A stretch of 64,000 nucleotides of DNA from Candidatus Zhuqueibacterota bacterium (GCA_034506315.1 JAPDPT010000005.1:36653-100652); one strand, 5' to 3'; numbered from the stretch's first letter, positions 26,450 to 58,844 are shown. Notes: a model not told the origin generated them from the letters alone. Numbers and translations: made by a program.

Positions 26450-26480
26450 TCCAAGCTCCCTTCCGGCATGATCGTTGGCC

Positions 26481-29948: not shown

Positions 29949-29983
29949 CCTTGGGTATCCTCCTCTACCTAAGGTGACGATGG

Positions 29984-32668: not shown

Positions 32669-32741
32669 CGCTCATTCCCTACCTTTAGCGTTCACCCCCA
32701 AGCCCGGAGCCTTGCCGACCTTATTGCCCCTCCCCCCGGCG

Positions 32742-32796
32742 AAATCCCTCACCGCAGGGATTTGCCCCTGGGGCGGCCGTGGGTCGCCCCAGGGGC
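32742..32796 (-). other. Two adjacent perfect hairpins between the binding-protein gene and the TonB receptor gene (attenuator/terminator-like)
   Basis: Hairpin 1 is a 12-bp perfect stem GCCCCTGGGGCG (32764-32775) / CGCCCCAGGGGC (32785-32796) with a 9-nt loop, starting 10 nt after the stop at 32806. Hairpin 2 is an 8-bp stem AAATCCCT (32742-32749) / AGGGATTT (32756-32763) with a 6-nt loop. There is no clean U-tract. Confidence 0.4.
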
Positions 32797-32805
32797 TACG
32801 TTGCC

Positions 32806-35304: not shown

Positions 35305-35393
35305 GGCTTCCACCTCCTCAAGATTGGCTCTCTTCCGTTCCCTCTTCTCCTCGGCCTCCAAAAGACGCAGCTCTCACCTCCCTTCCAGAGCGT

Positions 35394-36782: not shown

Positions 36783-36830
36783 CCGTCCCCTACCCGGGCG
36801 TTCCCACTCACGGCCTCGCAACCCTTACGA

Positions 36831-36850
36831 AGGGCAACAAATATGCCGCC
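36831..36850 (-). promoter_or_regulatory. Sigma-54 (-24/-12) promoter-like element for the transporter gene
   Basis: Minus-strand sequence cGGCAT-ATTTG-TTGCc matches the TGGCAC-N5-TTGCW consensus: GG at 36847/36846, GC at 36835/36834, with the exact 10-nt spacing between GG and GC. It lies about 50 nt upstream of the GTG start. Confidence 0.5.
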
Positions 36851-36911: not shown

Positions 36912-36950
36912 ATTATCACGGTGATAATGACCCATTATCAGGCCGATAAT
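36912..36950. promoter_or_regulatory. Tandem 17-bp palindromes ATTATC-N5-GATAAT (candidate enhancer / UAS for the sigma-54 response regulator)
   Basis: ATTATCACGGTGATAAT (36912-36928; an 8-bp perfect inverted repeat around one central nucleotide) and ATTATCAGGCCGATAAT (36934-36950). Centres are 22 bp apart. They are AT-rich islands in a 64% GC genome, 65-105 bp upstream of the -24 element. Confidence 0.55.
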
Positions 36951-39213: not shown

Positions 39214-39236
39214 CGCCATCCCCTTGCCTTTCAGCC

Positions 39237-42209: not shown

Positions 42210-42219
42210 AGCTCCTGCC

Positions 42220-45200
42220 CTATCTGACAAGCACGAGCTTCACACTCCGCACGTACTCCTCCGAGCCGCGCGCCGCCCTGATCCTGCACACGTAGACTCC
42301 CGAGGGGAGCCCGCGCGGGGACCACCGGGCCAGGTGCCACCCTGCTGCCTGGGGACCGTCGAAAAGTCGCTCCACCTCGCGTCCCCGCGAGTCGAACACC
42401 TGGACGGTAACCCGGGCTGGCCACGGGAGCCGATACCGCAGCGCCGTCGCTTCATTAAAGGGGTTCGGACAACCGGGTAGCAGAGTGAAATGGCCCGGGG
42501 CAACGCTGGCCTCCGGAGGAGATTCTGTGCCGCTTGTTCCAGCGAACGGGTCTTTGATTTCCAGGAGAAGCTCCCAGATGGCCCGGGGTCGCTGATACTG
42601 GGGAGCGCGGTACCTCCGGGGATCGCTGAAATGCCATGCTTCTGGGGTGTTGAAAAAGTAAGCGGTCTCCTCATTGACCCAGGTCTGGTAGTACACGCCG
42701 TAGGCGGTCTGCAGAGCCCGCTGACACAGGAGCTCGTCGCCCAGTTCCTTGCCCCAGTGGTACATCATGGCCGCGACGAAGTAGCTGCTGCCCGTCCACA
42801 CCTCATCTGCCTGGCCATTGCCCACGGCGGTGCCATCGGGCCTGCGGCCGTTCACGGCGCCCATGTCCCCCACCCCGTCACCCGTGAAGTCGCGGAGCGG
42901 AGCCACGCACAGCTCGAAAACCTTGTGGAGATGGGAGGCCATGCGCTCCGGAGGCAAGATCGGGGGCAAACCGTTCGTCTCGCAGTACCGGCTGCCGTTG
43001 AGCCCATCGGCCATGATTACGTCCGAGGTCTGATCCAGACGATAGTAGCCCCCTCCTTCCACCCAGAGAATCGCGTTCGCGGCTACTCGGGCGAGGGAAA
43101 GTCGGCGGCGCACATCGTTCAGAAGCACGCCGTCTCCTTTTTCCTCGGCCAGCTGCTCCAGTGCCTCCAGCGCTCCGATCCACAATCCGCTGGCCAAGAG
43201 ATTGTCTCCGTGAAATCCCCAGGCATCGTAGGTCGTGTTGCCAACATCGGGCAGGCCGTTGCCATTGGTGTCCTTGGTTTTCATGTACGCGAAGGTTTTC
43301 TTGCACGCCGGCCAGACGAAGTCGAGGAACGCGCGATCGCGTGTCGTACGGTAGTAGGCGTAGACCTGCTGGATGAACTTGCTGGGCATATCCTGCCAGT
43401 CGCCGCCGTAGCCGCTGAACCGGAAGAACGGGTCCTGGCTTGGCATTCCGGCGTCGTGAGGAGCTTTCCCGTCCGGATCGTTGGCGATGTAGTCCGCGAA
43501 CCAGCGCAGCACATCCCTTTCAATCTCCGGCCAAAGCACTAAGTAATGGCGGCACTCGTAGTGCCGGACGTCGAAGGTTTCGCAGAAGGGGTAGGCCTGG
43601 CACTCCATGGAGAAGTACTTGTGGTCGGAGGGCGGAAGCGTGCCGTAGGAGGACTCCTCCGGCTTCGTGAGGCAACCGTTTTCCCAGAACACGCCGCCGA
43701 AGGTATCGTAGTAGAGTTCGTTCAGGGCAGCCTGCTTGAGCCAGTCGGGGTAACACGGTTCGGACAGGATCCTGTCCTGCCAGGCGTCCACCATCGCCTC
43801 CCAGTTGGTGTAGTTTCTCAGAGCTTCGGAGGCGATGTCGAAGGAGTTGTCGGCCTGGGTGTCAAAGTACTCTGTATAGCGGCGGTACCACTGGGTGCCC
43901 GCTCCGAATTCCACGATCGGGAAATCCCATGCCAGAGCAAAGGGCACACTCCATACCTCTCCCGGAGCCAGGCGTTTCCGAACGGCAATCGCCGCTGCTT
44001 CGGCGTCCGGATGGAGGCTGCGATTGCTGAGGAGCCCGTCGTCCCCGAAGTCGGTGTAGAAATCCGCGCCGTCGCCTCGTCCGTTCCAGGAGGTGCAGTA
44101 GCTCACCTCCTCCTCGGGGCTGAGGCGGCGGGTGGCAATGCACCACTCCGTCCCCTCCGTGGCGCGGCGGTTGGACGGACTGGTCGCGTCGAGGATCACT
44201 CCGAGGATATCGCCCTCCGTCCGCAGCACAGATCGCTTTCCGTAGCGTGGCCAATCCCCGTAGTCTGCATTGGGAAACGTAAGGGCAAAGGCTACCCGAA
44301 CCGTCTCGGTCGTCGCGTTGCGCACCACCGCTTCGAACACAGCCACCGGGAAGCTGCTCTCCCGGTAATTGTGAGGAATCACGGGCGTGAAGTGCCGCAG
44401 CGCCACCTCCACAGGCAGACCGTGGTACAGGAACCAGGCTTTGGGGTAGAGGGCAGCGTATATCCCTTCGCCGGGAAGTAGGCGTCGCCAGGCAGGCAGG
44501 ACATCCTCCGTGGCCAGGGTCGCCACCTGCGGCGCCTGGTGCCCCTGTTGGATCCACAAGTGGAATGCCCCGGCCGAGAGGAATTTCTCTTCGTGCAGCC
44601 CGGTCCGGAATTCCCACGGACCGAAGGTGCCGCACAGGTTGAACATGAAGTTGCCAGCCCCGATCCCACCCAGGGGGACTCCCCGTTTCGCATGGCCCGT
44701 AGCCCCGACCGGGTAATCTCCGATGGGCCGCGTCCAGGCAACCTCCGGGATCCTGGCCAGCTGCTCGGAAGGACGGCTGGCGATCACGGTTACCGGCTCG
44801 CTCCACGGACTGGCGTTGCCGAACACGTCCAGAGCGCGCACGCGGTAGCGGTAGGTTCGACCAACGACCACGGCGCTGTCCGCTGCGCGCACAATCGCAC
44901 TAACGCCTTTGATGATCTCTGGACCAAGCGCCTCCCACGCGCCTTCTTCCCCCACAGCTCGCTGGAGCTGGTAGCCGTCGAGGTCGGGCTCTCGATTGCG
45001 TTTCCAAGAAAGCCAAATCCTGCCCTGCCAGAAGGAGCCACGCAGCCCTTCTGGGACCGAGGGAGGCTGGTCGTCGGGCACGGCAGGAACGATGGCGATG
45101 GCTGCGAACTTGGCATAGTCCACCTTGACCTCGGGGACGGTGATGTCGATGCGGCCGTCGCGGACCCGCACAAAGACGGAGGTGTCTAACGCGGCATCGT

Positions 45201-45645
45201 GTCCAACCTGGGAGAAGATGTCGAAGTCATCCAGGAAGAGCAGCCCGTTGACGGCGACATCGAAGACCCGACGACCCGGTGCTGTCCAGTAGAGCTCGCA
45301 GAACTTGAACAGGATCCGGTACACCCCATTGTCCAGCCCCTCGTACCGGTAATGGAGATCCGGCCCGTAGCGTTCGGTACGATAGAGCTCGTCGTCGAGG
45401 GTACCGGAGATTTCGTCCGCCGTAGTCGCCGTGCCGACGCCTGCGCTCAGATAGCCCCAGCTTCCGGGGCGAAAGGCCCGATCGGCCTCCCACAGTTGAC
45501 CTGCTCGGTCCCGGTAAGCCACGGCCGTCCCGCAGCGGTGTCGGATCTCGACCGCCCACCCCGTGCTCATGGTCCACGCGACTACGAAGACGGCAACCCA
45601 CCGGGCAGCTGTTGACCAACGGACTCTACCCGACACCCCGCGCAT
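42220..45645 (-). CDS. GH116-family beta-glucosidase (GBA2/glucosylceramidase-like) with N-terminal malectin-like (CBM57-like) and FN3 domains and a T9SS CTD
   Basis: RGVPLGGIGAGNFMFNLCGTFGPWEF is the characteristic GH116 N-domain motif. The malectin-like stretch is YRILFKFCELYWTAPGRRVFDVAVNGLLFLDDFDIFSQVG. An FN3-like segment (...GRIWLSWKRNREPDLDGYQLQRA...) follows. The C-terminus ...SGVYVCRIRAARGSEEYVRSVKLVLVR is a T9SS CTD. The ATG at 45643-45645 has an AGGAG RBS 9 nt upstream. Confidence 0.7.
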   Translation of the reverse strand: MRGVSGRVRWSTAARWVAVFVVAWTMSTGWAVEIRHRCGTAVAYRDRAGQLWEADRAFRPGSWGYLSAGVGTATTADEISGTLDDELYRTERYGPDLHYRYEGLDNGVYRILFKFCELYWTAPGRRVFDVAVNGLLFLDDFDIFSQVGHDAALDTSVFVRVRDGRIDITVPEVKVDYAKFAAIAIVPAVPDDQPPSVPEGLRGSFWQGRIWLSWKRNREPDLDGYQLQRAVGEEGAWEALGPEIIKGVSAIVRAADSAVVVGRTYRYRVRALDVFGNASPWSEPVTVIASRPSEQLARIPEVAWTRPIGDYPVGATGHAKRGVPLGGIGAGNFMFNLCGTFGPWEFRTGLHEEKFLSAGAFHLWIQQGHQAPQVATLATEDVLPAWRRLLPGEGIYAALYPKAWFLYHGLPVEVALRHFTPVIPHNYRESSFPVAVFEAVVRNATTETVRVAFALTFPNADYGDWPRYGKRSVLRTEGDILGVILDATSPSNRRATEGTEWCIATRRLSPEEEVSYCTSWNGRGDGADFYTDFGDDGLLSNRSLHPDAEAAAIAVRKRLAPGEVWSVPFALAWDFPIVEFGAGTQWYRRYTEYFDTQADNSFDIASEALRNYTNWEAMVDAWQDRILSEPCYPDWLKQAALNELYYDTFGGVFWENGCLTKPEESSYGTLPPSDHKYFSMECQAYPFCETFDVRHYECRHYLVLWPEIERDVLRWFADYIANDPDGKAPHDAGMPSQDPFFRFSGYGGDWQDMPSKFIQQVYAYYRTTRDRAFLDFVWPACKKTFAYMKTKDTNGNGLPDVGNTTYDAWGFHGDNLLASGLWIGALEALEQLAEEKGDGVLLNDVRRRLSLARVAANAILWVEGGGYYRLDQTSDVIMADGLNGSRYCETNGLPPILPPERMASHLHKVFELCVAPLRDFTGDGVGDMGAVNGRRPDGTAVGNGQADEVWTGSSYFVAAMMYHWGKELGDELLCQRALQTAYGVYYQTWVNEETAYFFNTPEAWHFSDPRRYRAPQYQRPRAIWELLLEIKDPFAGTSGTESPPEASVAPGHFTLLPGCPNPFNEATALRYRLPWPARVTVQVFDSRGREVERLFDGPQAAGWHLARWSPRGLPSGVYVCRIRAARGSEEYVRSVKLVLVR

Positions 45646-45672
45646 CGGTCGTTAGGCTCCTATCGGAAGGCC

Positions 45673-47697
45673 TTAATGGACAACGGTGAGCTTTTGCACA
45701 AGCTTGCGGCCACCGCTCTCCAGCACACAGACGTACACGCCACTGGGGACGCGCTGGAACTCCGCATTCCGACCGTCCCAGGTTACGTTCCGCAGCCCTG
45801 CTCTGACCTCCCCCGAGTGTACGGTGGCCACCAGTCCCCCCATCGAGTCGAAGATCTGCACACGCAGTGGCATCTCCTCATTGGAGAGAACCGGTATGGC
45901 CAGGCGCTCTCCCACCGGATTGGGGTGAGGCCGTCCGATCCAGAGCCCGCTCCTCAGCTCCTGGAACATGCCCATCTGCTTCACGCTGGCCCCAGCGATC
46001 CGGAAATCAACCAAGTTCAGGTTGAAACCGCCGGTGGGGAAGAGGAGCTTCAGCACGTGCCGGCCGGAAGGCAACGTCACCGTGGGGCCGTCAATGTACT
46101 GCCAATTTTTCCAGCCGCCCGTGGAGGGAATGGCTATGGGGCCAGCCAGAGGCGAATCGTCCAGGAAGAGCTGGACGCTGCCCGTCGCCTGAGGGGAGGC
46201 CACGCGTAATCGGACCGTGTACGTTCCTTCCACGTCCACCTGGACGGTGAACTTGAGCCATTCGCCTGCCTCGATCCAGCCGACGCTGTAGCCGTTTCCC
46301 TCTGTGTCTCCACTGGCCTCGATATCGACCCCGTCGTTGCGAAAGACGGAGCCTCGGTTCCATTGCTCGCCGCTTGTGAGGCCTTTGGTCTTCCAGTAAT
46401 CTGTGTCGTGATAGGCCACGCCCTCGTTGCCCATGTCGTACTCAACCGCCAGCAGCCGGCCCGGAAGCCGGTGCTCCGAGTAGGGAACCGGTTCGGTTGT
46501 GAACCCGGGTCGGAGGAGGGCGTCCACCACATCTGGGTGGTACACGCAGTTCTCGAGCTTCAGCTGCTCCGCCATCCCGAACAAGGCGCGACGGGCCAGC
46601 TCGGCATCGGGCCGGGCGGCTCTCCCATTCCAGTAATCGAGCACCCGCTGGTACTCGGCGGTGATGGGGGCCGAGAACGGGCTGGTGAGGGTCTGGAACT
46701 TCTTATGGGTCCACCAGCACCAGCCGATTTTGTTCTGTTCCATGAGCCGGATGCAGGTGCCGAACCAGGGGTTGGAGTTCTCTCCGGACTCGCCAAGCCA
46801 GAGGGGAGTGTGGTAACGCCTTCGGATGTCAAGCAGGTACTGGATGGTCGGCAGGGTCGGCTCGTTCCAGTACTTGTGGAAGCTGTAGCAGAGATTGACG
46901 TCGAAGGGGGGCGTGAGATTGCTGAAATCTGTGGCGTACCAGTTCCCTTCGATGAAGACCATGTGGTTGGGGTCCACTTCGCGGATCGCCTGCGTGATCC
47001 GCATGTACAGAAGACGAAGCTCGGTGGTGCTGTGGCCCGAAGGAAGCACAGGCTCATTGAGGAGGTCATAGCCTCCGATCCACTCCTCCTGCGCGTACCT
47101 CTCGGCGATACGGCGCCAGATGTCCACCACCCGATCCTGATTCGAGGGGTCGGTCCAGAGGCGGGCCTCGATCCCGTCCGAATCGCTATGGTTCTCTTTG
47201 TTCTGCCCACCGGGGGCGCAATGCATATCCAAGATCAGGTAGAGGTGATACTTCCTGCACCACTCCACCACCCGGTCGAGGAGCTGGAATCCCTCCTCTA
47301 AGTACACACCGGGCTGGTCGGGCGGTGTGAGAAGCGCGTAATGAAAGGGCAGCCTGATGGAGTTGAACCCCCACTGGGCAATCCGCGCCACATCCTCCTC
47401 CGCCACGTAGTGGGCGCGGTATTGCTGGAAGAACTCATCGGTCAACTGGGGACCCAGCAGGTCGGCGATGAGATTGCGAATGGACGTCGGGGAGCCGAAT
47501 CCGGGCACTCTCAGCATGTAGCCCTCGGGAACCAACCAGCCGCCAAGTCCCAGGCCCCGTAGGATGACCTCCTCCCCGGTACGGGTGTCGATGATGCGCT
47601 CGCCTTGGGCCTTCAGAAAGGCGAGAGAAGGCACCGGGAGGAGACCGCACAGCAAGACCCCCGTCAGCGCACTCCAAAGTCGCGCATTCGGCTTCAC
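45673..47697 (-). CDS. GH5 family beta-glucanase with C-terminal CBM6/35-like module and T9SS CTD
   Basis: FNSIRLPFHY...LILDMHCAPGGQN...GYDLLNEPV (NEP acid/base motif) identify GH5. The C-terminal beta-sandwich GEWLKFTVQVDVEGTYTVRLRVASP...GGWKNWQY resembles CBM6. The C-terminus ...SGVYVCVLESGGRKLVQKLTVVH is a T9SS CTD. GTG start at 47695-47697 with a GGAGGTGGG RBS, giving signal peptide MKPNARLWSALTGVLLCGLLPVPSLA. Confidence 0.8.
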   Translation of the reverse strand: MKPNARLWSALTGVLLCGLLPVPSLAFLKAQGERIIDTRTGEEVILRGLGLGGWLVPEGYMLRVPGFGSPTSIRNLIADLLGPQLTDEFFQQYRAHYVAEEDVARIAQWGFNSIRLPFHYALLTPPDQPGVYLEEGFQLLDRVVEWCRKYHLYLILDMHCAPGGQNKENHSDSDGIEARLWTDPSNQDRVVDIWRRIAERYAQEEWIGGYDLLNEPVLPSGHSTTELRLLYMRITQAIREVDPNHMVFIEGNWYATDFSNLTPPFDVNLCYSFHKYWNEPTLPTIQYLLDIRRRYHTPLWLGESGENSNPWFGTCIRLMEQNKIGWCWWTHKKFQTLTSPFSAPITAEYQRVLDYWNGRAARPDAELARRALFGMAEQLKLENCVYHPDVVDALLRPGFTTEPVPYSEHRLPGRLLAVEYDMGNEGVAYHDTDYWKTKGLTSGEQWNRGSVFRNDGVDIEASGDTEGNGYSVGWIEAGEWLKFTVQVDVEGTYTVRLRVASPQATGSVQLFLDDSPLAGPIAIPSTGGWKNWQYIDGPTVTLPSGRHVLKLLFPTGGFNLNLVDFRIAGASVKQMGMFQELRSGLWIGRPHPNPVGERLAIPVLSNEEMPLRVQIFDSMGGLVATVHSGEVRAGLRNVTWDGRNAEFQRVPSGVYVCVLESGGRKLVQKLTVVH

Positions 47698-47732: not shown

Positions 47733-47752
47733 TGAACAAAATCCAGGCCGGA
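47733..47752 (-). promoter_or_regulatory. Weaker sigma-54-like -24/-12 element for the GH5 gene
   Basis: Minus-strand cGGCCTG-GATTT-TGTTc: GG at 47749/47748 with correct spacing, but the -12 element is TTGT rather than TTGC. It sits about 35 nt upstream of the GTG start and 75-115 bp downstream of the tandem palindromes, the same geometry as at 36.8 kb. Confidence 0.3.
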
Positions 47753-47824: not shown

Positions 47825-47864
47825 ATTATCGCCATGATAATGGGACGTTATTGTTCTGATAACG
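47825..47864. promoter_or_regulatory. Second pair of ATTATC-N5-GATAAT-type palindromes (candidate UAS), upstream of the GH5 gene and adjacent to the sigma-54 regulator gene
   Basis: ATTATCGCCATGATAAT (47825-47841) is a perfect ATTATC-N5-GATAAT site. CGTTATTGTTCTGATAACG (47846-47864) is a degenerate GTTAT-N7-ATAAC site. Centres are 22 bp apart, identical to the pair at 36912-36950. Confidence 0.5.
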
Positions 47865-48053: not shown

Positions 48054-49514
48054 TTACTTGAGCCCGAGATCGCGGCACATCCGATGGAAGTTCGGTGGTG
48101 CCAGACCGAGCATCCGGGCGGCTTCTGCATCGGAGGAGCAGATCTTTCGCACGTAGCGGAAGTACTCCTCGCGGAAGCGCCTCTCCATTTCGCGCCAGGG
48201 GAGAATCTTCCCGTCGCCCGCGCGCCGTAACCAGTCCTCGATCTCCACCTCTTTGCGAAGCCGGATCTGGAAACCAAGAGCCTCCTCTACGTCCTCCCGG
48301 TCCAGACGCGGCTTCCCGGTCAGGAGAAGCCGCTGTATCACGTTCTGCAACTGGCGCACGTTCCCAGGCCAGGGATAGCCCAGCAGGACTTCCATGGCTG
48401 CCGGGCTCAGCTCCGGCGGGAGGCGGCCCATCTCGTCGCTATACCGCTTGAAATAGTGATCTGCCAAGAGGGGGATGTCCTCCCTTCGTTCGGCAAGGGG
48501 GGGCACGTAGATCGTCAGGACATTGAGGCGGTAGTACAGGTCCTCCCGGAAACGCCCTTCGCTGACCTCGCGCTCCAGATCTCGATTGGTGGCCGCGATC
48601 ACCCGCACGTCAACTTTCACGCGCCGCGTTCGTCCGATCTTGTCGATCTCCCCCTCTTGGATCACACGCAGCAGCGTGGACTGGGTGCTGAGGGGCAGCT
48701 CCGTGATCTCGTCCAGAAAAACGGTGCCCCGATCGGCCAGCTCGAAAAGGCCAGGCTTGTTGGCTTCCGCCCCCGTAAAGGCGCCCTTCTCGTACCCGAA
48801 GAGCTCACTTTCGATGAGGTTCTCCGGCAAGCTCCCGCAGTTTATGGGGAGGAAGTTTTCGAAACGGCGGCGACTGAGGTAATGGATATGAGTCGCCACC
48901 AGCTCCTTACCGGTACCGGAGGCGCCTCGGATCAATACCGTACTGTCGGTTTCAGCACACTGGCGGATCTGCTCGCGCAGGCGCTGAATGGCCGGCGATT
49001 GTCCCACAATGACCCGTTGGGCCAGGATATCCTCGATGCTCTTCTCCAGGCGAGCCGCGGAACGCCGCTTCTCCAGTTCCAGGCGCCTCTTCTCATAGGC
49101 ATTGAAGATGCTCAGAATAAAGTCCGTGGGCTGGTAAATGAAGTCGTCGATGTCGGCGGGGTACTTGGTGCAGTACCAGGTGGCCCCGGCTTCCAGGAGG
49201 CGATTGGCGAATTCGTAGTCGGTCATGTTGATGGTCATCTTGGTCACCACGATGATCTGGAGCGCCGGGTCAATCTCTTTGATGCGGCGGATGAGCGGCT
49301 CTCCCATGAGGCCGCCCGCGATCTGGAAGTCCATGATCACCACGTCGTACGAGCTCGGCGACTTGGCCAATTGCTCCAATGCCAGCCGCCCGTTAGCGAA
49401 CACGTCCACGATCTTGATCCGGTCTGCGAAGGGTTCGAGCGTACGTCGGATGCGGCGCACGTCGAACTCCTCGTCCTCGATCAACATGACCCGGATCGTA
49501 TGGCCCTTGCCCAT
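48054..49514 (-). CDS. Sigma-54-dependent two-component response regulator (NtrC family: receiver - AAA+ - Fis-type HTH)
   Basis: The receiver domain is IRVMLIEDEEFD...VVIMDFQI. The AAA+ sigma-54 activator domain has Walker A GASGTGKE, the GAFTGA sigma-54 contact loop (YEKGAFTGA) and an ESELFGY motif. The C-terminal HTH is AARMLGLAPPNFHRMCRDLGL. ATG at 49512-49514. Confidence 0.9.
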   Translation of the reverse strand: MGKGHTIRVMLIEDEEFDVRRIRRTLEPFADRIKIVDVFANGRLALEQLAKSPSSYDVVIMDFQIAGGLMGEPLIRRIKEIDPALQIIVVTKMTINMTDYEFANRLLEAGATWYCTKYPADIDDFIYQPTDFILSIFNAYEKRRLELEKRRSAARLEKSIEDILAQRVIVGQSPAIQRLREQIRQCAETDSTVLIRGASGTGKELVATHIHYLSRRRFENFLPINCGSLPENLIESELFGYEKGAFTGAEANKPGLFELADRGTVFLDEITELPLSTQSTLLRVIQEGEIDKIGRTRRVKVDVRVIAATNRDLEREVSEGRFREDLYYRLNVLTIYVPPLAERREDIPLLADHYFKRYSDEMGRLPPELSPAAMEVLLGYPWPGNVRQLQNVIQRLLLTGKPRLDREDVEEALGFQIRLRKEVEIEDWLRRAGDGKILPWREMERRFREEYFRYVRKICSSDAEAARMLGLAPPNFHRMCRDLGLK

Positions 49515-49518
49515 GGGC

Positions 49519-51009
49519 TCAGCTCCTGCTCTCATTGGGGATGGTGATCACAAACTGGCAGCCGCGGGAGAGGTTCTCGGCGTCGATCCTCCACCCGCAG
49601 CGCTGCGTGGCAATCTCGTAGGCGATGTAGCAGCCATAGCCGCTCTGATGGGCTGTGGTCTTGGTCGACACGTTCTCCAGGAACAGCCGTTTCACCCCAT
49701 TTTCCTCCAGAAGAAGATCCGGACGGATCCCCACCCCGTTGTCCCCGATGTAAACCTTGGACTCGCCTTTTTCCGGATCGTATACGGTCCGAATGTGTAC
49801 GGTGACCTGCCCATCGCCGGCGTGGTCCAGGCTATTCTGGATCAGCGGCTCAAAAACCTCCCACACGACGAACTCATTGACGTGGACCACAGGCAGATTC
49901 GGGTCCAGGTCCAGCTGGAACTGGTAGTCGCCAAGCGGGGCCGAGACGCGGCGGAAGATGTTGTCCACCAGGAACTGCAAGAGCTCGTTGATGTCCGTTC
50001 GGAACATCGGCCCTCGGATGGCCTGAATTGGCGGGTCGTAGGTCTTCATGTCGTAGATCACGCGGGAGATGAAATTAGCGTACTTGGACACGCGGTACTT
50101 GACCTCCTGGATGTTCTCCACGGACAGGCGCCGGAGATCTTCTTTGATGAAGCCCATGATCTTCTCGGCTTTGTGGTGGGTGTGGTAGATCCGCTTGGCG
50201 AAGAGGGCTTCCTTTTGGTGGTGAATTCGTTCCCGCAGTTGGCGCTCGCGTTCCTCGAAAAGCTGGCGCTGGGCCTCATCCCTCTCCTTGACCGTGTAGG
50301 ACGAGATGTAGAACATGGCAAGCAGGCCAAAGAAAATGAGGCCGGTGAAGATGAGGCTGCTTTCGTTGTAGCTGGAGACGATGCCGCTGGTTACGATCCC
50401 GAAGTCCGGGGCGTACTTCATGTAAAGGGCACCCATCAGCTCGCCCTTCGGGACGAAGGGGACGAAAACGTGGAACGTCCGCGGCGGTTCGACGAGGCTC
50501 CGGATCTGCTCCTGGGAGATGATTTCATCGAAATGCTCACGGTAGAGCTGGAGGGCGCGCGCGTAGGTCGTGTCGTTATCCGCCGGGGGCTCCATTCCCC
50601 AGAAAAGGGTTGCGAACAGCTGCTGCCCGTTGTCCACCGGATGGGCGTTGGCGCCATCGCCCAGAAGCAGGCAGACCTGCTGCACATGGTGCTGGAGCAG
50701 CTGCTCGCTCAGAATGATATTGAAAGCCTGGATGATCTTCTTCGCTTCGTCGTCGCTGACGAAAGGACGGCTCTCAAGGCTCGTCTCCAGAAGCAACTCA
50801 AGGGAAGTTGCGGTGAGATTCGCCAGCTTCTCCGCGAAATCGCGTTGGTACCACTCCTGTGTGTTCACGAGAAACTTCTGCAGGGAGACCTTATGGATAA
50901 ACGACACTAACACCTGGAAGAAGACGAGCACCGAGAGGAGCACCATCAGGTGTTTCAGCTCGAAGTGATAGGGCCTCACCTTATCCATTAACTTCTGCAC
51001 GTACCTCAT
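49519..51009 (-). CDS. Sensor histidine kinase (membrane-anchored, HATPase_c)
   Basis: N-terminal TM segment MVLLSVLVFFQVLVSF. The C-terminal GHKL ATPase stretch is ...LIQNSLDHAGDG...IGDNGVGIRPD...GYGCYIAYEIATQRCGW. Its stop lies 5 nt before the regulator start, so the two are operonic. Confidence 0.75.
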   Translation of the reverse strand: MRYVQKLMDKVRPYHFELKHLMVLLSVLVFFQVLVSFIHKVSLQKFLVNTQEWYQRDFAEKLANLTATSLELLLETSLESRPFVSDDEAKKIIQAFNIILSEQLLQHHVQQVCLLLGDGANAHPVDNGQQLFATLFWGMEPPADNDTTYARALQLYREHFDEIISQEQIRSLVEPPRTFHVFVPFVPKGELMGALYMKYAPDFGIVTSGIVSSYNESSLIFTGLIFFGLLAMFYISSYTVKERDEAQRQLFEERERQLRERIHHQKEALFAKRIYHTHHKAEKIMGFIKEDLRRLSVENIQEVKYRVSKYANFISRVIYDMKTYDPPIQAIRGPMFRTDINELLQFLVDNIFRRVSAPLGDYQFQLDLDPNLPVVHVNEFVVWEVFEPLIQNSLDHAGDGQVTVHIRTVYDPEKGESKVYIGDNGVGIRPDLLLEENGVKRLFLENVSTKTTAHQSGYGCYIAYEIATQRCGWRIDAENLSRGCQFVITIPNESRS

Positions 51010-51021
51010 GGCGGACCCTTC

Positions 51022-52362
51022 CTACTTGAGTACAAACTGGTTGGAAAAAATGGCGGCCTGCGCCTTTTCCAAAGCCTCTGCCACCGACATTTCCCCCCGA
51101 ATGGCCAGGTTTGCGTAATAGGAGAGGATATCCGACACCTGCGTGTAGCGCTCAATGTAGGGGCGGTGCACGCCGTGCTCCATCAGCCTTCGGTACAGGG
51201 ATAGATCTGGGTGCGCCGCGAGGAACGAGGTGTCTGCGTAGATGGACTGCAAGACGGGGATGTACCCGGAGGTTTCGTAGAGGATCTTCTGGTTCTGCTC
51301 TTCAAGGAGGAAACGCACAAAAGTCAGGGCAGCCCTCCCGTTGCGGGAGAATCGCGAGATCATCAGGTTCCATCCGCCGAACACGAAGGCGGGCCGCCCC
51401 CCGGCAAAGTGCGGAAGCGGCGCCAGACCGAAGTTCGACAAGGGAGCGGTCCTTTCAATCTGTTCCCGGTAGTGGAGGAGAAACCCTGGCCAGCCGCGGA
51501 AGAAGATCGCGTTGTGATCCAAGGCGTACATGTAGCTCAGGATCTCGTCGAAGAAGACCACCTTGGGCGGCGTGGCGCGGTAGCGATGGACCAGGTCGGC
51601 GAGGAGCTGCAGGCTGCGCCGGGCCGCGGGCGTATTGACCCGAATCCTCCCCTCGGCATCCACGAGGGAATCCCCCAGGCTCATCACTCCCTCCACGAAA
51701 CTGCAGATGAGCCCCTCGTAGTTGTCCGCCGCGAAGAGGTAGTACGGGCTCGTCTTGGGGCTCCAGCGCTCGAACGCGGCTAAGAATTCTTCCCAGGAGA
51801 TCGAGCGCTGGACCTTCTCCTGGAGCGCCGGCCAGTCCGGAAGTTGTTGCAGGAGGTCCTTGCGGTAGTACATCAGGCCGATGTCCAGGTAGAGGGGCAC
51901 GGCCATCAGCCTTCCCTGGTAGTAGCAGGAGGTCAAAGCATAGGGCAGAAGGCGCGCGCGATCTGCGTGCGTGAAGTAGGCGTCGAGCGGCTCCCCCCAC
52001 TTGGCGAAGCGCGGTACCCAGATGACGTCCACCGAAAACACGTCGATGCGGTCGCTCTTGCTGCGAAGGGCCCGTGCCAGAAGCTCCTTGCGTTCGTTGG
52101 TGCTGAAGCGGGTGAAGGGCAAATGGACCGTAATGACCTGGTAACGATTGCGGTAGCGTTCGTTGAAGCGCCGCACAATCTCCTGGTGGGCAGGGGAAAT
52201 GTTGTCTGCGTAGTAGATTTTCACCACAGGCGGGCGCGCCGGTGAGGTCAGAATCGCCGGACCGACGATAATGGCCAAGATCGCCACCCCAATCACCGCA
52301 AACGTGACCCCCCAGAGCACGCGGCGCCCAAACTTCTCCTCCTGTTGCTCTTCCATGGGCAA
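51022..52362 (-). CDS. Extracellular solute-binding protein (family-1 sugar ABC-type SBP) with no cognate permease; likely a sensor-associated ligand-binding component
   Basis: N-terminal membrane anchor/signal VLWGVTFAVIGVAILAIIVGPAIL. An SBP_bac_1-like body follows (...VDVIWVPRFAKWGEPLDAYF...). TTG start at 52362 with a GGAGGTG RBS. Directly followed by the kinase and regulator genes. Confidence 0.7.
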   Translation of the reverse strand: MPMEEQQEEKFGRRVLWGVTFAVIGVAILAIIVGPAILTSPARPPVVKIYYADNISPAHQEIVRRFNERYRNRYQVITVHLPFTRFSTNERKELLARALRSKSDRIDVFSVDVIWVPRFAKWGEPLDAYFTHADRARLLPYALTSCYYQGRLMAVPLYLDIGLMYYRKDLLQQLPDWPALQEKVQRSISWEEFLAAFERWSPKTSPYYLFAADNYEGLICSFVEGVMSLGDSLVDAEGRIRVNTPAARRSLQLLADLVHRYRATPPKVVFFDEILSYMYALDHNAIFFRGWPGFLLHYREQIERTAPLSNFGLAPLPHFAGGRPAFVFGGWNLMISRFSRNGRAALTFVRFLLEEQNQKILYETSGYIPVLQSIYADTSFLAAHPDLSLYRRLMEHGVHRPYIERYTQVSDILSYYANLAIRGEMSVAEALEKAQAAIFSNQFVLK

Positions 52363-52366
52363 GAGC

Positions 52367-53131
52367 TCACCTCCTGCGGAAAATCTGAACGTGGTCGTAC
52401 AGAGCCTGGGCTGGGAGGTTGCTGTCGTCTCTGGGCCCCGCCCAGGCCACCGATTCCGAATACCAGAGGTTCATCATCACCTGCATCCGCAGATCGGGCA
52501 CGTGCGTCGTGTCCGCCACCTGATGGATCAGCTTTCCGTCGGCGTACCAGCGTACCACCCCCTCCTCCCATTCGATCGAATACTCGTGAAAGTCGGCCGC
52601 GGCATCGAACGGCAGAGCGATGACCTTGGGCCATTGGTGCCCGGCGTCCCCCGCATTGTTCGCAGCGCCCTCAGGCCCCGGATTGTAGTAGATATTCAGG
52701 TGGATCTTGCGTGTATCCTTGCCCAGGAACTCGATGTCGATTTCCTGCCAGGGATTGTACCGGTAGAGGAAAAACGAGCTAACGATCCCGCTCCCCCGCG
52801 CAGCCTTCATCCGCACAGAAAACCTACCGTACAGGTATGAGGAACGCGTCCGAAGCTCCCCGCCGGTGTAGTTCCGGTCCAGGTAGAACTCGGGTCGGAG
52901 CGTGAGGACGAGTTTACCGTCCTGCACTGTGACGTTCTCCGGCTTGAAACGGGCCGCGTTGTACGGGAAGGTGTGAGTGGCTTTCTCCCAGCGCGTTTCG
53001 TTGAGCGTGTCGAAGGGCTCGTCGAGGATGAGTTTCCAGGGCGATGGCTCAGGTGCAGTGGACGATTTCGAACATCCCCACGCAAACAAGACCCACGTGA
53101 TCCAAAGGACCGGCCCCACGCGCTTGCCCAT
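52367..53131 (-). CDS. GH16 beta-glucanase lipoprotein (paralogue of the CTD-bearing GH16 at 21790..23589)
   Basis: Lipobox ...VLFAWGCSKSS. GGELRTRSSYLYGRFSVRMKAARGSG and the catalytic WQEIDIEFLG (ExDxE) are present. 254 aa with no CTD. ATG at 53129-53131 with a GGGAGG RBS. Confidence 0.85.
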   Translation of the reverse strand: MGKRVGPVLWITWVLFAWGCSKSSTAPEPSPWKLILDEPFDTLNETRWEKATHTFPYNAARFKPENVTVQDGKLVLTLRPEFYLDRNYTGGELRTRSSYLYGRFSVRMKAARGSGIVSSFFLYRYNPWQEIDIEFLGKDTRKIHLNIYYNPGPEGAANNAGDAGHQWPKVIALPFDAAADFHEYSIEWEEGVVRWYADGKLIHQVADTTHVPDLRMQVMMNLWYSESVAWAGPRDDSNLPAQALYDHVQIFRRR

Positions 53132-53285: not shown

Positions 53286-54020
53286 TCAGATGAAACGTTC
53301 TCGCTTCTGCAGGTTTCGGAGGCCAAAGAGGATCGCGAGGAGCGAGGCGGCCGTAAGGTACAGGCGGTTCTGGGCCACAAGGCTCGCCCACACCACCTCG
53401 TTCAAGCCGGAGGGGATCTGGTACGGATTCAGGAACACATTCCACTTGCTCGCCGCCAGAGGCTCGGCGGCGAGGAAGCAGCCAATGCCCAGGGCAACCA
53501 TGACCACCGCGGTTCCACTGCCACTGCGGAGCACCGTTGAAAGCATGAAGGCCAGGCTCCCCCAGAAGACCACGGGGAACATCACCTGCACTGCCATCGG
53601 CAGCACGGCCACGGGCATCACCGTGAGCGAGGCCAGCGCCCCCAGGGCCAGGAGGGTAGCCAGCGCCAGGACAAACATCATCACCAGACGGACGAGCCAC
53701 ACCTTGTACCGGTAGTCCGGGATCCCGAAAAGGATCTCGATCATTCGCACGTCGACGTCGCTCTGCAAGCCAAACGTCGACGGATAGAAGACCACCAGCA
53801 GCCCAGGAAAGAGCAGGTAGTAATACACCAGCCCGGGGCTCGGGGCAGCATCGGAGAACACAAAGATCCCATTGAGCAAGAGGAAGAACGCGACCGCCGC
53901 CAGGAAAAACAGCGGGAACTTGTTCCCGAAGATGATCTTCAGGTTGTAGCGGGCCATCCGGCTCACCAGGTCCGCATGGCTTGCCCAGCGACGGACAGCC
54001 ATCCTTCTCACCGTACTCAT
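53286..54020 (-). CDS. ABC-2 family transporter permease (GldF/NosY-like six-TM subunit)
   Basis: 244 aa with six hydrophobic segments. The N-terminal ...FFLLLNGIFVF is typical of ABC-2 permeases. The ATG at 54018-54020 overlaps the upstream stop in an ATGA arrangement, indicating translational coupling. Confidence 0.75.
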   Translation of the reverse strand: MSTVRRMAVRRWASHADLVSRMARYNLKIIFGNKFPLFFLAAVAFFLLLNGIFVFSDAAPSPGLVYYYLLFPGLLVVFYPSTFGLQSDVDVRMIEILFGIPDYRYKVWLVRLVMMFVLALATLLALGALASLTVMPVAVLPMAVQVMFPVVFWGSLAFMLSTVLRSGSGTAVVMVALGIGCFLAAEPLAASKWNVFLNPYQIPSGLNEVVWASLVAQNRLYLTAASLLAILFGLRNLQKRERFI

Positions 54021-57000
54021 GAATCCCCTTTGCGCTTCCCTTGGCTCAGGAGCCAGAGATAGGCGTCCTCCAGCGTCGGCCTTACGGGCACGGCTTCCGG
54101 AGCGGGTTGGATCTCGGATAGGCACCGGACCCGGATCCGATCCCGATCCCTCATATGGTGGACGATAAGCAGGCGTTGGCGAAGGGAATCGAGCTCTTCC
54201 GGGGCCGCGTACAGTTGCCACACACGCCCCTCCGCTTGGCGCGCCATGTCGCCAGGGGTTCCCGTGTAGATCAGCCGTCCGCCATTCAGCACTACGACCT
54301 GATTGCAGGAGCTGGAGATATCCTCGATGATGTGCGTGGAGAACAGCACGATACGGTTGCGGCTGAGTTCGACGAGCAAGTTCCGGAATCGAATGCGTTC
54401 GCGCGGATCCAGCCCCGCTGTAGGTTCGTCCACCACCAGAATGCGTGGCAGATGGAGGAGGGTCTGGGCGATGCCTATCCGCTGCTTCATCCCGCCGGAA
54501 AAGGAGCCGATGCGCTCGTGTTTGTGCTCCTCCATGTGCACAGCGCGCAGAACCTCGTCGATCCGCTTCTCCCGCTCCTCCCGATCCACCAGTCCCTTGA
54601 GGATCGCCTGATAGCTCAGGAACTCGTACGCGGTCATGTTTTCGTACACGCCGAATTCCTGTGGGAGATAGCCGATCAATGCCTGTAGCTCTTCCCGGCG
54701 CTCCTGGGTATCCACGCCGTTGATCCACACTTTGCCGTAGCTCTGTTCGAGGATCCCGCAGATGATCCGCATCAGCGTGGTCTTGCCTGCACCATTGGGC
54801 CCCACCAGACCAATCATGCCCTCACCTATCTCCAGGGAGACCCGGTCCAGAGCCTTAAACGGTCGTTTCCGGCGCCCCAGAATGGGGATGGACATCACGA
54901 GGCGGTAAAGGCCCTTCCGGAAACCCGCAAACCTGCCCTGGATCCGGGCAAGGCTCACCTCCTGGGCGTAAAGTCGCGCCGAGGCCTGATGGATCGCCAG
55001 GGCCAGATACCACACGAGGCCGGCAAAAAGCACCACCAGGGGTTGCCGCCAACGGAAGAAAAAGAACGTCAGGTTCAAGAAGGGGAAGCCCCAGAGAAAG
55101 ACGGGGCGAAAGATCCTGCCCGCACCTGCCGCCCACCGACCACCACCCCTCTCGGCCGAAAGACGGACCAGGGGCTCCACTTCACGCCACAGGTGCAGGA
55201 CGTAGAAGAAAACCGCCTGCGCCAGGAGAAGCTGCCAGATTCGAGAGCGCAGGTAGAAGTACACGAAGTACACCAGGAAGCCGAGCAGAGGCAGTTTCCA
55301 GATCCAGGTCTCCAGATCGCGCCACCGCTGAGCAACCCGACAGTCGCGCTGGCTCAAGCGCTGGCCCTTTTTCCACTCGCGGACAAAGCGAGAATCCCAG
55401 TCGTAGATCTTGACCAGGTTACGCACTCGAATGCGCAGGCTCTGGCCCTCCTCGAGCACGGATCGGTCGGCCCGCCGCAAGCTGGTCAGCCCAAAGTAGG
55501 TCAAAGCGGGAATTCCCAGCGCCAGCAGGACCAGGTCGGCCAGTCTCCAGACCGTCGTGTGGACGTGCGCGTAGATCTGCCAGGCGCCCATTGCAAAGGC
55601 GCCGTACTGCAGAGCCTTGAGCCGCCAGTCCAGACCCCGGAACCACTGCAAGGCCGTTTCCAGGCCGGTGTAAACCGTCGGGATGAAGACCAGGGTGAAC
55701 AGCGTGCTCACTGCCAGGCCCCCGATTACGGTGATGGCAAAAGGGGCCCCGATCTGCGCCACGTACTCCACCTGCCCCATCGCTAGGGGTAGCATGGCGA
55801 TCATCGTCGTGATGGCCGTGATCAGAATGGGACGCACACGCGCTTGCCCCGCCACCATCAGGGCACGAGATCGACGGAATCCCCGCTGCCGCAGGATGCG
55901 AGTGAAATCGATCAGGATGATGCCGTTGTTTACCACTACCCCGATCAGGATCAGAAAGCCCGTCAGCGTGTTCGCATTGAACAAAGAATTCTTGGTGAGG
56001 ATCAGGGCCCAGAGGGAACCCGTAGCTGCCAAGGGGATGGTGAACATCATCACCAGGGGGGTCACGGCAGATTCAAACACGGACGCCAGGATCATGTAGA
56101 TCAGAATGAGGGCGGCCGCGGTCAGGAAATAGAACTCGCCGAGCTCGGTCTCCTGATGGATGATCTGCACCGCAATTCCAGCAGGGAAAGACAAGCTGCC
56201 AAGGACTCGATCCACCTCGGCCCTGGCGGACTCCAGCAACGGCTTGGAGCTGTTCACATCCGGGAGAAATTGGTACACCACCTCGATCTGCTTTTCCTGA
56301 TTCAGCCTGCGGATGCTGCCCCGCCCGCTGGCAAGGACGATGCGGCTGAGCTCCTCCAGGGTCAGGAAGGCCTCGTCGCCAGCGCCCACGACGAGGCTAC
56401 GCAGGTCGTCCAGAGAGCGTTCAGTGACTCTCTCCTCCCCTCTCTCCTGGACCCGGATGGTGATGTCGTATTCCTCCGTCCCCTGCCGGTACCGCATCCC
56501 AGAGGAGAACTCGGTGCCAAACGTCGCCAGCTCCGCCGCCACCTGAGCCAGGGTTAGGTTGTACTGGCTCATCACGTTCTGGTCGAAGTAAAGGTGGACT
56601 TCGGGGCGGGCCCCGGACACGTTCAACCGCACGGTCTGCACGAAGGACAAGTTCTCCAGATAGTACCGGATGTCGTCCGCCACACGGAGCATCTGATCGA
56701 AGTCCTGGCCCCGGATTACCACCCTCTCCTGCTGCGTCCCGATGCCCAGGAGACGCTCCAGCTGCGCGGCAGGGTTGCTCATGCCGCCCCCCACCCGGAA
56801 CCGCCGGCTGGAGGCAGGCTGCTCGAAGCTGATTTCCGCCGTCCGGAAATCCTTCAAGCGGTTCTGAATCTCCTCCTTAACCTGCGCCAGATCTCTTCCC
56901 TTGATCTTGCGGTAGTTCTCCTTGAGGCGCACGGTGACCACCGCTTCATCTTCGTAGATCCGGCTGATGACGTCCTGTTTCTCCTCCAGGTTCTCCAGCC

Positions 57001-58753: not shown

Positions 58754-58844
58754 CGTCAACGAAGCTCGTTTTCGTCCGTCGCCGTACCTTCCGTCACCGC
58801 CTACCCCCTCGGAGGTAGCTGCTTTGCCGACCTCTGCGGGCAAC

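Follow-up and report, generated by a model that had tools for sequence, protein, structure and literature searches.

The locus described here raises the question of why the gene of a sugar-type solute-binding protein (SBP) is followed directly by those of a membrane histidine kinase and a sigma-54 regulator. The four genes GH16, SBP, kinase and regulator were confirmed from ORFs and Pfam domains and all lie on the minus strand of the window (the whole 64-kb stretch of DNA that was analysed, from a candidate division KSB1 genome): the GH16 gene (53131..52367, 254 amino acids; PF00722, E 2e-36), the SBP gene (52362 with TTG, or 52356 with ATG, to 51022; PF13416/PF01547), the kinase gene (51009..49519, 496 amino acids), with HATPase_c as sole Pfam match, and the gene of an NtrC-type regulator (49535, or more likely 49514 (Met8), to 48054; PF00072, PF00158, PF25601). 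The likely start of the SBP is ATG 52356, which is also the start in the public record of 444 amino acids. For the regulator, Met8 at 49514 is the likely start because it matches an orthologue of 485 amino acids. The junctions are 10 nt between GH16 and SBP, 12 nt between SBP and kinase and 4 nt between kinase and regulator (counted from Met8), and this range of 4-12 nt roughly agrees with the 5-12 nt of the initial annotation.

The order of SBP, kinase and regulator (the triad) is highly conserved. The SBP gene is directly upstream of the kinase gene in 68 of 71 related loci from different species and the regulator gene directly downstream in 71 of 72; because of this synteny, the arrangement is not due to chance. 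All three genes point the same way and the adjacency is kept across species; five further loci that were independently fetched and annotated have the same triad order. The kinase is encoded by at least 431 species genomes, and the triad is present in KSB1, Calditrichota, Ignavibacteriota, Kryptoniota and Zhuqueibacterota. Three Melioribacteraceae-type loci have kinase and regulator with no adjacent SBP, and the triads of the cultured Melioribacter and Rosettibacter have no neighbouring glycoside hydrolases. This family from several poorly studied bacterial phyla appears to be undescribed so far. As its clade is nearly always encoded directly upstream of a kinase and a sigma-54 activator, the earlier proposal that the SBP is a sensor partner and not part of a transporter is upheld. 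We interpret the triad as a three-component sensory switch for the glucan-utilisation locus that turns on two operons, A and B, and put the probability of this reading at about 70%.

The AF2 model of the SBP is confident (pLDDT 90) and has a type-II SBP fold with an N-terminal helix (residues 3-38). A hydrophobic N-terminal helix is present in 38 of 40 SBP homologues. A lipobox-like match is present in only two of the 40 homologues and was taken as chance. From these features, the protein is predicted to be a CUT1-type sugar-binding protein that is tethered to the membrane instead of being secreted free, and is a candidate co-sensor. The best solved relatives are TMBP (1eu8), MalE3 (6dtq) and the Thermus alpha-glycoside-binding protein (6j9w); in Foldseek, TMBP-like importer proteins match with E 1e-33 to 1e-25 and a TM-score of 0.73-0.89, at an identity to the nearest solved sugar binders of only 25-30%. 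R91, D160, W331 and R400 are invariant in the family and align with R49, D118, W287 and R356 of 6j9w, the positions mutated in that protein, which supports the view that the residues contacting sugar in the transporter relatives are retained in the SBP.

This likeness would also fit an SBP that primarily serves as receptor for a CUT1 ABC importer whose genes lie at another place in the genome, with a dual use as for ChvE, CBP and GltB: fold and pocket are of the ABC-importer type, more distant relatives at about 30% identity include an SBP-permease fusion and the genome view spans 64 kb only. We consider this very unlikely. Among the large ORFs scanned in the 64-kb window there is no MalF/G-type permease (BPD_transp_1) and no MalK-type ATPase, and the five annotated loci, which have no ABC permease genes within 10 kb of the triad, lack such genes too, in line with the initial annotation, which had noted the missing ABC partner. 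The SBP thus has the fold of CUT1 importers, yet no MalF/G or MalK neighbours in the annotated loci. Import at these loci goes through a TonB receptor together with permeases of the SSF, MFS or an unknown type, and by score the SBP family stands as a group of its own: its members exceed about 250 bits, whereas transporter SBPs reach at most about 190 bits. SBP-kinase fusion proteins were not found among the long relatives checked.

Just upstream of GH16, an ORF overlooked by the earlier description (58882..54017) encodes an ABC ATPase domain fused to an RND pump and is followed by a 244-amino acid protein with 5 TM segments (54020..53286). In the loci examined, this ORF accompanies the triad solely in the closest relative. 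As a partner of the SBP it was rejected, because it adjoins efflux genes, not MalFG-type permeases, and because only the closest relative has it next to the triad.

The kinase is built of a TM1, a periplasmic domain of about 177 amino acids (about residues 40-215) that is PAS/sCache-like, a TM2, a DHp helix in which the motif RIYHTHHKAEK is invariant, and a CA domain; with a conserved phospho-acceptor histidine in the DHp helix and a CA domain (HATPase_c), it has the hallmarks of a histidine kinase. The periplasmic domain has a fold of a ligand-binding type and is well conserved, to about the same degree as the SBP (median identity 50% versus 46.5%). The kinase could thus sense the sugar directly, with an SBP that only tunes it, or represses it when apo, as in CBP/ChiS. 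Because the three loci mentioned above lack an adjacent SBP, the kinase may act alone, and CuaSR of Ruminiclostridium cellulolyticum perceives cellobiose even without CuaD, if less efficiently (PMC10384115). A dispensable accessory is however hard to square with an SBP that stands beside the kinase in 68 of 71 species and has an invariant sugar pocket, and in the known SBP-kinase pairs listed by PMC8050422 it is the SBP that is the ligand receptor; direct sensing by the kinase is therefore improbable.

The regulator consists of a REC domain, a Sigma54_activat domain (PF00158, E 7e-71), an AAA_lid and a C-terminal HTH; Walker A (residue 204), Walker B and GAFTGA (residue 251) are intact. REC, an AAA+ domain with GAFTGA and a C-terminal HTH are the features of the NtrC family. 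The likely binding site of this activator is a tandem palindrome, TTATyA-N3-TrATAA in two copies 22 bp apart, which occurs exactly twice in the 64 kb, both times at the start of an operon. The predicted site A (47825..47863) consists of two palindromes of 15-17 bp, GTTATCAGAACAATAAC and ATTATCATGGCGATAAT, the predicted site B (36912..36950) of ATTATCGGCCTGATAAT and ATTATCACCGTGATAAT, each pair being 22 bp apart. The motif of site A is also found after the regulator gene in related loci. In 81 related sequences there are 96 tandem sites, compared with 2.65 in block shuffles.

Both sites are followed on the minus strand by a sigma-54-like -24/-12 element: element A (47735..47750, CGGCCT-GGATT-TTGTT) 75 nt past site A and element B (36833..36848, CGGCAT-ATTTG-TTGCC) 64 nt past site B. 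Element A is identical in the related locus L001 though the surrounding intergenic sequence has diverged, and its spacing falls in the family-wide peak of 60-79 nt; its -12 part has GT, not GC, and the match is limited to GG...TTG. Across the family, 69 of the 96 tandem sites have their best -24/-12 match 60-79 nt further on and 88 have it within 50-99 nt, and a score of at least 15 is reached at 66% of sites but at only 13% of controls. The family form is tGGyAy-N5-TTGy, with a -12 part that is often TTGT versus the canonical TTGC: with a C in only about a third of sites, this is a relaxed consensus match, and a strict search of the window for TGGCAC-N5-TTGCW found nothing meaningful. Within this relaxed consensus, the layout is that of NtrC-family targets, which have -24/-12 promoters with activator sites about 100 bp upstream.

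The predicted target operon A (36964..47697, minus strand) has four genes, assigned by Pfam, all on the minus strand: GH5-CBM6 with a T9SS tail (47697..45673), malectin-GH116 (45645..42220), GH5-like/CBM4_9 (42230..39237) and GH3 (39255..36964), with a 27-nt gap followed by overlaps of 11 and 19 nt. The real start of the first gene is GTG 47697, which gives a signal peptide and a length that matches an orthologue of 674 amino acids; ATG 47835 falls within a palindrome of site A. The predicted target operon B (25376..36821, minus strand; Pfam and TM prediction), whose transcript extent is inferred, starts with a membrane protein of at least 10 TM segments and no Pfam match (about 36821..35394), a candidate inner-membrane permease. 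This is followed, on the same strand, by CBM9 with a T9SS tail (35361..32806), a TonB-dependent receptor (TBDR; 32668..29984), an 1155-amino acid protein of unknown fold with no Pfam domain and a T9SS-like C-terminus (29948..26481) and a PorV/FadL-like outer-membrane protein (26497..25376). The operon has a gap of 137 nt and is followed by one of 258 nt, neither of which has an activator site; past the latter are a SurA-like protein and GH16-malectin (25117..21790). SusD/RagB matches were absent from the Pfam results for the window ORFs scanned: the TBDR is present, followed by the 1155-amino acid protein instead, and the locus differs in this from a SusC/SusD-type PUL. The CBM9-TBDR(-1155 aa) cassette also comes after the triad in L003, L012, L022, L048, L080, L082 and other loci. 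With conserved palindromes and -24/-12 elements preceding both operons, the secreted glucanase and transporter genes that had been proposed as output do appear to be the targets.

The target genes in relatives are mostly GH16, GH5-CBM6, GH3, GH30, GH116, CBM9-TBDR and SSF/MFS transporters. This bears on another explanation, namely that the module senses an alpha-glucoside (trehalose, maltose) or free glucose and that the adjacent beta-glucanases reflect general carbon-status control. Trehalose, maltose or glucose are the ligands of the nearest proteins of solved structure (1eu8, 6dtq, 6j9w, LpqY), and the positions mutated in 6j9w are conserved. At 25-30% identity, these binders are however distant, and in the loci examined the genes at activator sites are overwhelmingly those of beta-glucan enzymes (GH16, GH5, GH3, GH30, GH116) and never alpha-glucosidases, which makes this explanation distinctly improbable. 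The pocket of the SBP resembles those of trehalose/maltose binders. Because these bind alpha-glucosides, a beta-glucan fragment is no more than a candidate ligand.

The initial annotation had further placed GH16 in a feed-forward circuit as the source of laminari-oligosaccharides that serve as signal. GH16 has a lipoprotein-like N-terminus (...FAWGC) and is a probable lipoprotein and first gene of the sensor operon. Both GH16 proteins have the catalytic motif EIDIE (residue 130 in the small one), which lacks the extra residue that is typical of laminarinases; the best NCBIfam match of the small GH16 is the lichenase BglS (E 2e-49, 168 bits), below the cutoff of 300 bits. Because of this motif and the below-cutoff lichenase score, laminari-oligosaccharides are a guess. 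Among the loci examined, only the closest relative (80% identity; L001/L002/L008) has a GH16 gene right before that of the SBP; elsewhere GH16 is a downstream target, on the opposite strand upstream or absent, and its linkage to the sensor is confined to close relatives and is not a conserved feature of the module. The sensor operon, to which GH16 belongs, lacks an activator site, and its expression is probably constitutive; GH16 would lie outside any feed-forward loop and is a candidate for a constitutive 'sentinel' enzyme. The circuit would amount to common induction by the substrate, in which the induced enzymes provide positive feedback.

For the three-component switch, we propose the following mechanism. 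An uncleaved N-terminal helix would anchor the SBP in the inner membrane, on the periplasmic side, and the SBP would bind a small gluco-oligosaccharide that most likely consists of two or three sugar units and comes from beta-glucan; in this lineage, the small GH16 lipoprotein could make the inducer from polymer or imported oligomers. The liganded (or unliganded) SBP would touch the PAS/sCache-like domain of the kinase and alter autophosphorylation; we infer that it physically presents the ligand to the kinase. Judging from domain content, the kinase would then phosphorylate the REC domain of the NtrC-type activator. The predicted output step is the one visible as conserved sequence: the activator would bind the tandem palindromes about 60-80 bp upstream of the -24/-12 promoters and drive sigma-54 open-complex formation. 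Operon A would provide secreted and periplasmic beta-glucanases and beta-glucosidases (GH5-CBM6, GH116, GH5/CBM4_9, GH3) and operon B the uptake machinery (polytopic membrane protein, CBM9 surface protein, TonB-dependent receptor, its 1155-amino acid partner and the PorV-like protein).

More tentatively, and with slightly less than even odds, the triad may act as a master regulator shared by beta-glucan loci that lack SusD and are linked to T9SS, in several phyla of the FCB superphylum (the five named above), with one cis-regulatory code. If so, it would be the counterpart of the hybrid two-component systems, SusR and the ECF sigma factors of Bacteroidia, and the code (TTATyA-N3-TrATAA twice plus a sigma-54 promoter) would allow the regulon to be read from genomes of uncultured lineages.

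The triad is a well-supported member of the known class of "three-component" sensors, which includes AioXSR and CuaDSR. The arsenite system AioX-AioS-AioR of Agrobacterium and Rhizobium NT-26 has the same order of SBP, kinase and NtrC-type sigma-54 activator; AioX is a dedicated sensor SBP without transporter, associated with the cytoplasmic membrane, AioS has an sCache-like periplasmic domain and the target operon has an RpoN promoter (PMC7533571, PMC8050422). However, AioX belongs to the phosphonate-type SBPs (PF12974) and has As(III) as its ligand, whereas the SBP of the window is of the CUT1 sugar-binder type; AioXSR is found in Proteobacteria and has a single oxidase operon as target, the triad has glycan-utilisation operons, and beyond common domains there is no detectable sequence relationship.

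The cellobiose system CuaD-CuaS-CuaR (PMC10384115) and XylFII-LytST of Clostridium beijerinckii likewise have a second, non-transport sugar SBP beside a two-component system (PMC10384115, PMC8050422). CuaDSR detects a breakdown product of beta-glucan and induces uptake and catabolic genes, as proposed for the triad, but is from Gram-positive hosts and targets an ABC importer, and sigma-54 dependence is not described in these two papers (PMC10384115, PMC8050422). The host of the triad is a diderm, and the predicted targets are T9SS-secreted enzymes and a TonB-dependent receptor, via sigma-54. In CBP-ChiS of Vibrio and ChvE-VirA of Agrobacterium, a periplasmic SBP for a sugar or oligosaccharide modulates a membrane sensor kinase with a dCache-like sensor domain, and the outputs are genes of polysaccharide catabolism or sugar-responsive genes (PMC8050422). 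These outputs are not described as sigma-54-dependent, and CBP and ChvE belong to other SBP families (SBP_bac_5, Peripla_BP_4) and also serve ABC transporters.

The TMBP-like proteins (TMBP of T. litoralis, MalE3 of T. maritima, the Thermus protein and LpqY) have fold and pocket motifs in common with the SBP; their genes are part of MalFGK-type operons and they pass sugar on to a permease, whereas the SBP of the triad is encoded with a kinase and a regulator and is predicted to be helix-tethered. In Bacteroidota, also of the FCB superphylum, the PUL regulators (HTCS, SusR and ECF sigma/anti-sigma factors) provide oligosaccharide-inducible control of loci with TonB receptors and glycoside hydrolases. 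An HTCS unites the periplasmic sensor, the kinase, the receiver and an AraC DNA-binding domain in a single polypeptide and works without sigma-54. The triad differs from these in having three separate proteins and a predicted use of sigma-54; the biological role that we propose for it is the same.

The sensor operon consists of four closely spaced genes on the minus strand, which holds almost all genes from ~21.8 kb to 64 kb of the window (G+C ~62%). Two of the encoded proteins, the solute-binding protein and the kinase, are each 100% identical to annotated proteins of a candidate division KSB1 metagenome-assembled genome. These encode a GH16 protein of 254 amino acids (53131..52367; PF00722, E 2e-36), a solute-binding protein (SBP; 52362/52356..51022; PF13416/PF01547), a histidine kinase with HATPase_c as the sole recognised domain (51009..49519) and an NtrC-type regulator with REC, Sigma54_activat (E 7e-71) and AAA_lid domains (49535/49514..48054). 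The regulator has the GAFTGA motif, Walker A and B motifs and a C-terminal HTH. With starts chosen by orthologue support, the junctions are 10, 12 and 4 nt. Coordinates and domain matches confirm the four genes that the initial annotation had described. Long plus-strand ORFs over the same region (for example 49225..50910) were taken as high-GC artefacts, since the minus-strand genes carry domain matches and have orthologues. When the window's large ORFs were scanned with Pfam, neither a MalF/G-type permease nor a MalK-type ATPase was identified, and none of the three proteins SBP, kinase and regulator reached the cutoff of an NCBIfam model.

An ABC ATPase encoded just upstream was considered as a partner of the SBP and rejected: it is part of an RND-pump fusion among efflux genes and, among the triad loci examined, this gene lies beside the triad of SBP, kinase and regulator in the closest relative (80% identity) and in no other. 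The fusion ORF (54017-58882, minus strand; 1621 amino acids) comprises a complete AcrB/RND transporter (residues 47-1072), extra trans-membrane helices and the ABC ATPase domain (1345-1489), and is followed by a gene for a 244-amino acid protein with five trans-membrane segments (53286-54020, minus strand). The fusion is also called in the 80%-identity relative, with 1572 amino acids, and is therefore not caused by a sequencing error; we are not aware of another fusion of RND and ABC domains like it.

SBP, kinase and regulator form a conserved unit. The contigs of five diverse SBP homologues (46-80% identity) were examined, and in each case the same kinase and a sigma-54 regulator are encoded downstream; none of the five loci has ABC permeases. 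In these five loci the triad is followed by glycan genes, encoding GH5-CBM6, GH116, GH16-malectin, GH2, GH30 and GH3 proteins, a CBM9/T9SS protein, a TonB-dependent receptor and SSF/MFS transporters. A search with a kinase alignment, restricted to one genome per species, found kinase relatives in at least 431 species genomes; the best 80 of these belong to KSB1, Calditrichota, Ignavibacteriota, Kryptoniota and Zhuqueibacterota, and the Ignavibacteriota carriers include the cultured Melioribacter and Rosettibacter primus. Of the loci whose contig extended far enough around the kinase gene, 68 of 71 have the SBP directly upstream and 71 of 72 have the regulator directly downstream. The exceptions are three Melioribacteraceae-type loci that have a SurA/PpiD-like gene in place of the SBP (L061, L068 and L073, ~8100-9700) and a Zhuqueibacterota locus (L014) in which the SBP and kinase lack a neighbouring regulator; such naturally occurring variants could reveal whether the SBP is essential. 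Median identities to the window proteins across 62 loci are 46.5% for the SBP, 54.6% for the kinase and 58.7% for the regulator. The GH16 gene is outside the conserved unit: among the loci examined, it is found right upstream of the SBP only in the 80%-identity relative.

AlphaFold2 predicts a type-II binding-protein fold for the SBP with confidence (pLDDT 90); a long helix at the N-terminus (residues 3-38) comes before it. Of 40 SBP family members, 38 have an N-terminal hydrophobic helix of at least 19 residues and just two have a lipobox-like match, which we read as chance matches; the helix thus appears to be an uncleaved membrane anchor. The T. litoralis trehalose/maltose-binding protein matches the SBP with 30% identity (phmmer E 7e-57, Foldseek E 2e-33), and the other closest solved structures are T. 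maritima MalE3, mycobacterial LpqY and a Thermus alpha-glycoside-binding protein (6j9w). In a pairwise alignment, R91, D160, W331 and R400 of the SBP correspond to R49, D118, W287 and R356 in the protein from Thermus, which are the positions mutated in its deposited structures. The four SBP residues are also invariant in the 40 family members, indicating that the pocket is intact; its probable ligand is a di- or oligosaccharide based on glucose. An exhaustive search identified ~55-60 representative clusters of the SBP family above ~250 bits; below this score are ordinary transporter SBPs with ~30% identity, among them one SBP-permease fusion. Fusions of SBP and kinase were considered as 'Rosetta stone' evidence and discarded: the long relatives are tandem SBPs or the SBP-permease fusion.

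All 40 kinase homologues have two trans-membrane helices around ~177 periplasmic residues. Pfam HisKA models do not match the kinase; the homologue alignment has an invariant motif, RIYHTHHKAEK(V/I)MGF. Among 39 aligned homologues, the median identity is 50% for the periplasmic domain and 64% for the cytoplasmic part.

Comparison of the DNA just 3' of the regulator gene between several loci identified two adjacent palindromes of the type TTAT-N7-ATAA. Exact palindromes are present at only four positions of the window, as two tandem pairs with 22 bp spacing: site A (47863-47825) is ahead of the GH5-CBM6 gene and site B (36950-36912) is between the GH3 gene and the next gene. The window and 80 related loci together have 96 tandem sites (2.65 in block-shuffled sequences), with the consensus TTATyA-N3-TrATAA and a spacing of 22 bp in 67 of the 96. 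Most are directly 3' of the regulator gene; in Ignavibacteria, further sites are found ahead of divergent GH3/GH16/GH5 operons and CBM9-TBDR cassettes. The best match to a -24/-12 element follows 60-79 nt after the site in 69 of the 96 cases and 50-99 nt after it in 88, and scores of at least 15 were reached at 66% of sites versus 13% of random control positions. The consensus of these elements is tGGyAy-N5-TTGy, with the -12 'C' frequently a T, which is a weak point. Behind site A the element is CGGCCT-GGATT-TTGTT (47750-47735), identical in the 80% relative even though the flanks have diverged; behind site B it is CGGCAT-ATTTG-TTGCC (36848-36833). Judged from sequence, the layout has the classical geometry of NtrC-type activation. 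The sigma-54-like promoters became visible only once the search was anchored on the conserved palindromes and loci were compared: a scan of the whole window for strict TGGCAC-N5-TTGCW with one mismatch returned one match, in a coding region and no better than shuffles. A sigma-70 and terminator scan of 47500-53400 also gave nothing above shuffles, its lone promoter-like match being the palindrome itself.

No palindrome is found ahead of the sensor operon, even with three mismatches allowed, and autoregulation of the operon in this genome is therefore ruled out. In Ignavibacteria, the sites upstream of the SBP gene face the divergent GH operon. The region upstream of the sensor operon has a TTTG-N20-TATCTTTC arrangement, which bears a tentative resemblance to Bacteroidetes housekeeping promoters. 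In two loci from cultured strains (L033 and L035; Rosettibacter primus and Melioribacter sp.), the neighbours of the triad are unrelated, namely a UvrA-like ATPase and a pyrimidine-nucleoside phosphorylase. With the motif criteria of this analysis, neither locus has a tandem palindrome within 10 kb of the triad, and their regulon must lie elsewhere in those genomes.

Site A precedes predicted operon A, which encodes a GH5-CBM6 protein with a T9SS tail, a malectin-GH116 protein, a GH5-like/CBM4_9 protein and a GH3 protein. The first ATG (47835) of the longest GH5-CBM6 ORF falls within the regulatory palindrome (extension 47698-47835, minus strand). GTG 47697 is the real start: a protein beginning there has a signal peptide and is as long as the orthologue. 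Gene callers that choose the longest ORF would hide the promoter region. Predicted operon B, behind site B, encodes a membrane protein, a CBM9 protein with a T9SS tail, a TonB-dependent receptor, a protein of 1155 amino acids and a PorV/FadL-like protein. Its first gene (35394-36821, minus strand) encodes at least ten trans-membrane segments with no Pfam or NCBIfam match, a candidate for a novel inner-membrane oligosaccharide permease; the annotated TTG start is too near to the promoter element, so that the real start is probably further downstream. The secreted 1155-amino acid protein (26481-29948, minus strand) has no Pfam domain and a weakly PorZ-like C-terminus. It is kept right after the TonB-dependent receptor in several loci (L003, L048, L080, L082 and L085) and may substitute for the missing SusD-like partner, no SusD homologue being detected among the scanned ORFs of the window.

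Operon B is followed, after a 258-nt gap without a site, by SurA-like and GH16-malectin genes. The latter is the second GH16 of the window (21790-23589, minus strand), fused to a malectin domain and beyond the predicted regulon, as is a GH106-like alpha-L-rhamnosidase (16414-19245, minus strand); given these two genes, the glycan locus may reach substrates besides beta-glucan. An ORF at 9260-10987 (minus strand) strongly matches MtaB, the B subunit of methanol:cobalamin methyltransferase (PF12176, E 5e-149). One would not expect this in a KSB1 heterotroph, and it may point to methylotrophy or to metabolism of methoxyl groups.

A three-component switch is the most likely reading: the SBP, tethered to the membrane, would capture a small gluco-oligosaccharide in the periplasm and modulate the kinase via the kinase's PAS-like domain. 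Once phosphorylated, the activator would bind the tandem palindromes and open the sigma-54 promoters that drive the operons for enzymes and uptake. Gene content, synteny, tethering, the intact pocket, activator sites and promoter geometry support this switch at the level of sequence and comparison; we infer the contact between SBP and kinase, the sign of its effect, the ligand and the sigma-54 dependence in vivo. The initial annotation had deduced a binding-protein-assisted sensor from the gene layout, and this holds, given the synteny of the triad and the lack of ABC permeases in the five traced loci; the output that it predicted, on glucanase and transporter operons, is supported by the cis elements. 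The role it gave to GH16 as the generator of the signal finds no support in a gene that accompanies the SBP in a single close relative, and neither does the label 'feed-forward' in an operon with no palindrome ahead of it. Co-transcribed with the sensor, GH16 could be a constitutive inducer-generating enzyme specific to this lineage. Laminarin, the proposed source of the ligand, is likewise unsupported: both GH16 proteins have the motif EIDIE and the best match of the small GH16 is the lichenase BglS, below cutoff, making mixed-linkage glucan at least as likely.

How bacteria control glycan utilisation has been studied in detail for Bacteroidia and is, to our knowledge, essentially unexplored for the remaining FCB phyla, whose members abound as polysaccharide degraders in sediments, hot springs and subsurface habitats. 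Our analysis provides a sensor family conserved in at least 431 species, together with a predicted DNA-binding motif and a promoter architecture from which the regulon can be predicted; Melioribacter and Rosettibacter are cultured hosts for testing these predictions. Together, the palindrome and the -24/-12 element offer a means of recognising inducible glucanase operons in metagenomic sequences, and they may serve as a sugar-inducible expression switch.

Known binding-protein-dependent kinases make a short list, nearly all from Proteobacteria and Firmicutes: a 2021 review covers LuxPQ, TorTS, HptAS, ChvE-VirA, AioXS, BctCE, CBP-ChiS and GltB-GtrS, cites a three-component D-xylose system of Clostridium beijerinckii and makes no mention of Bacteroidetes (PMC8050422). 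The triad extends this list by a sugar-binding SBP of the CUT1 type that is coupled to a sigma-54 activator. We found no description of the triad in the literature on KSB1, Calditrichota, Ignavibacteria and Melioribacter, a coverage that is incomplete and in which absence is not proof. Closest in signal is the CuaDSR system of R. cellulolyticum, whose non-transport SBP binds both cellobiose and the kinase (PMC10384115). Closest in function and architecture is AioXSR, which pairs an SBP dedicated to sensing with a kinase whose sensor is sCache-like, and which has a sigma-54 activator and an RpoN promoter (PMC7533571, PMC8050422). The triad thus represents a new family that is widespread and belongs to a known sensor class; it is not a new principle.
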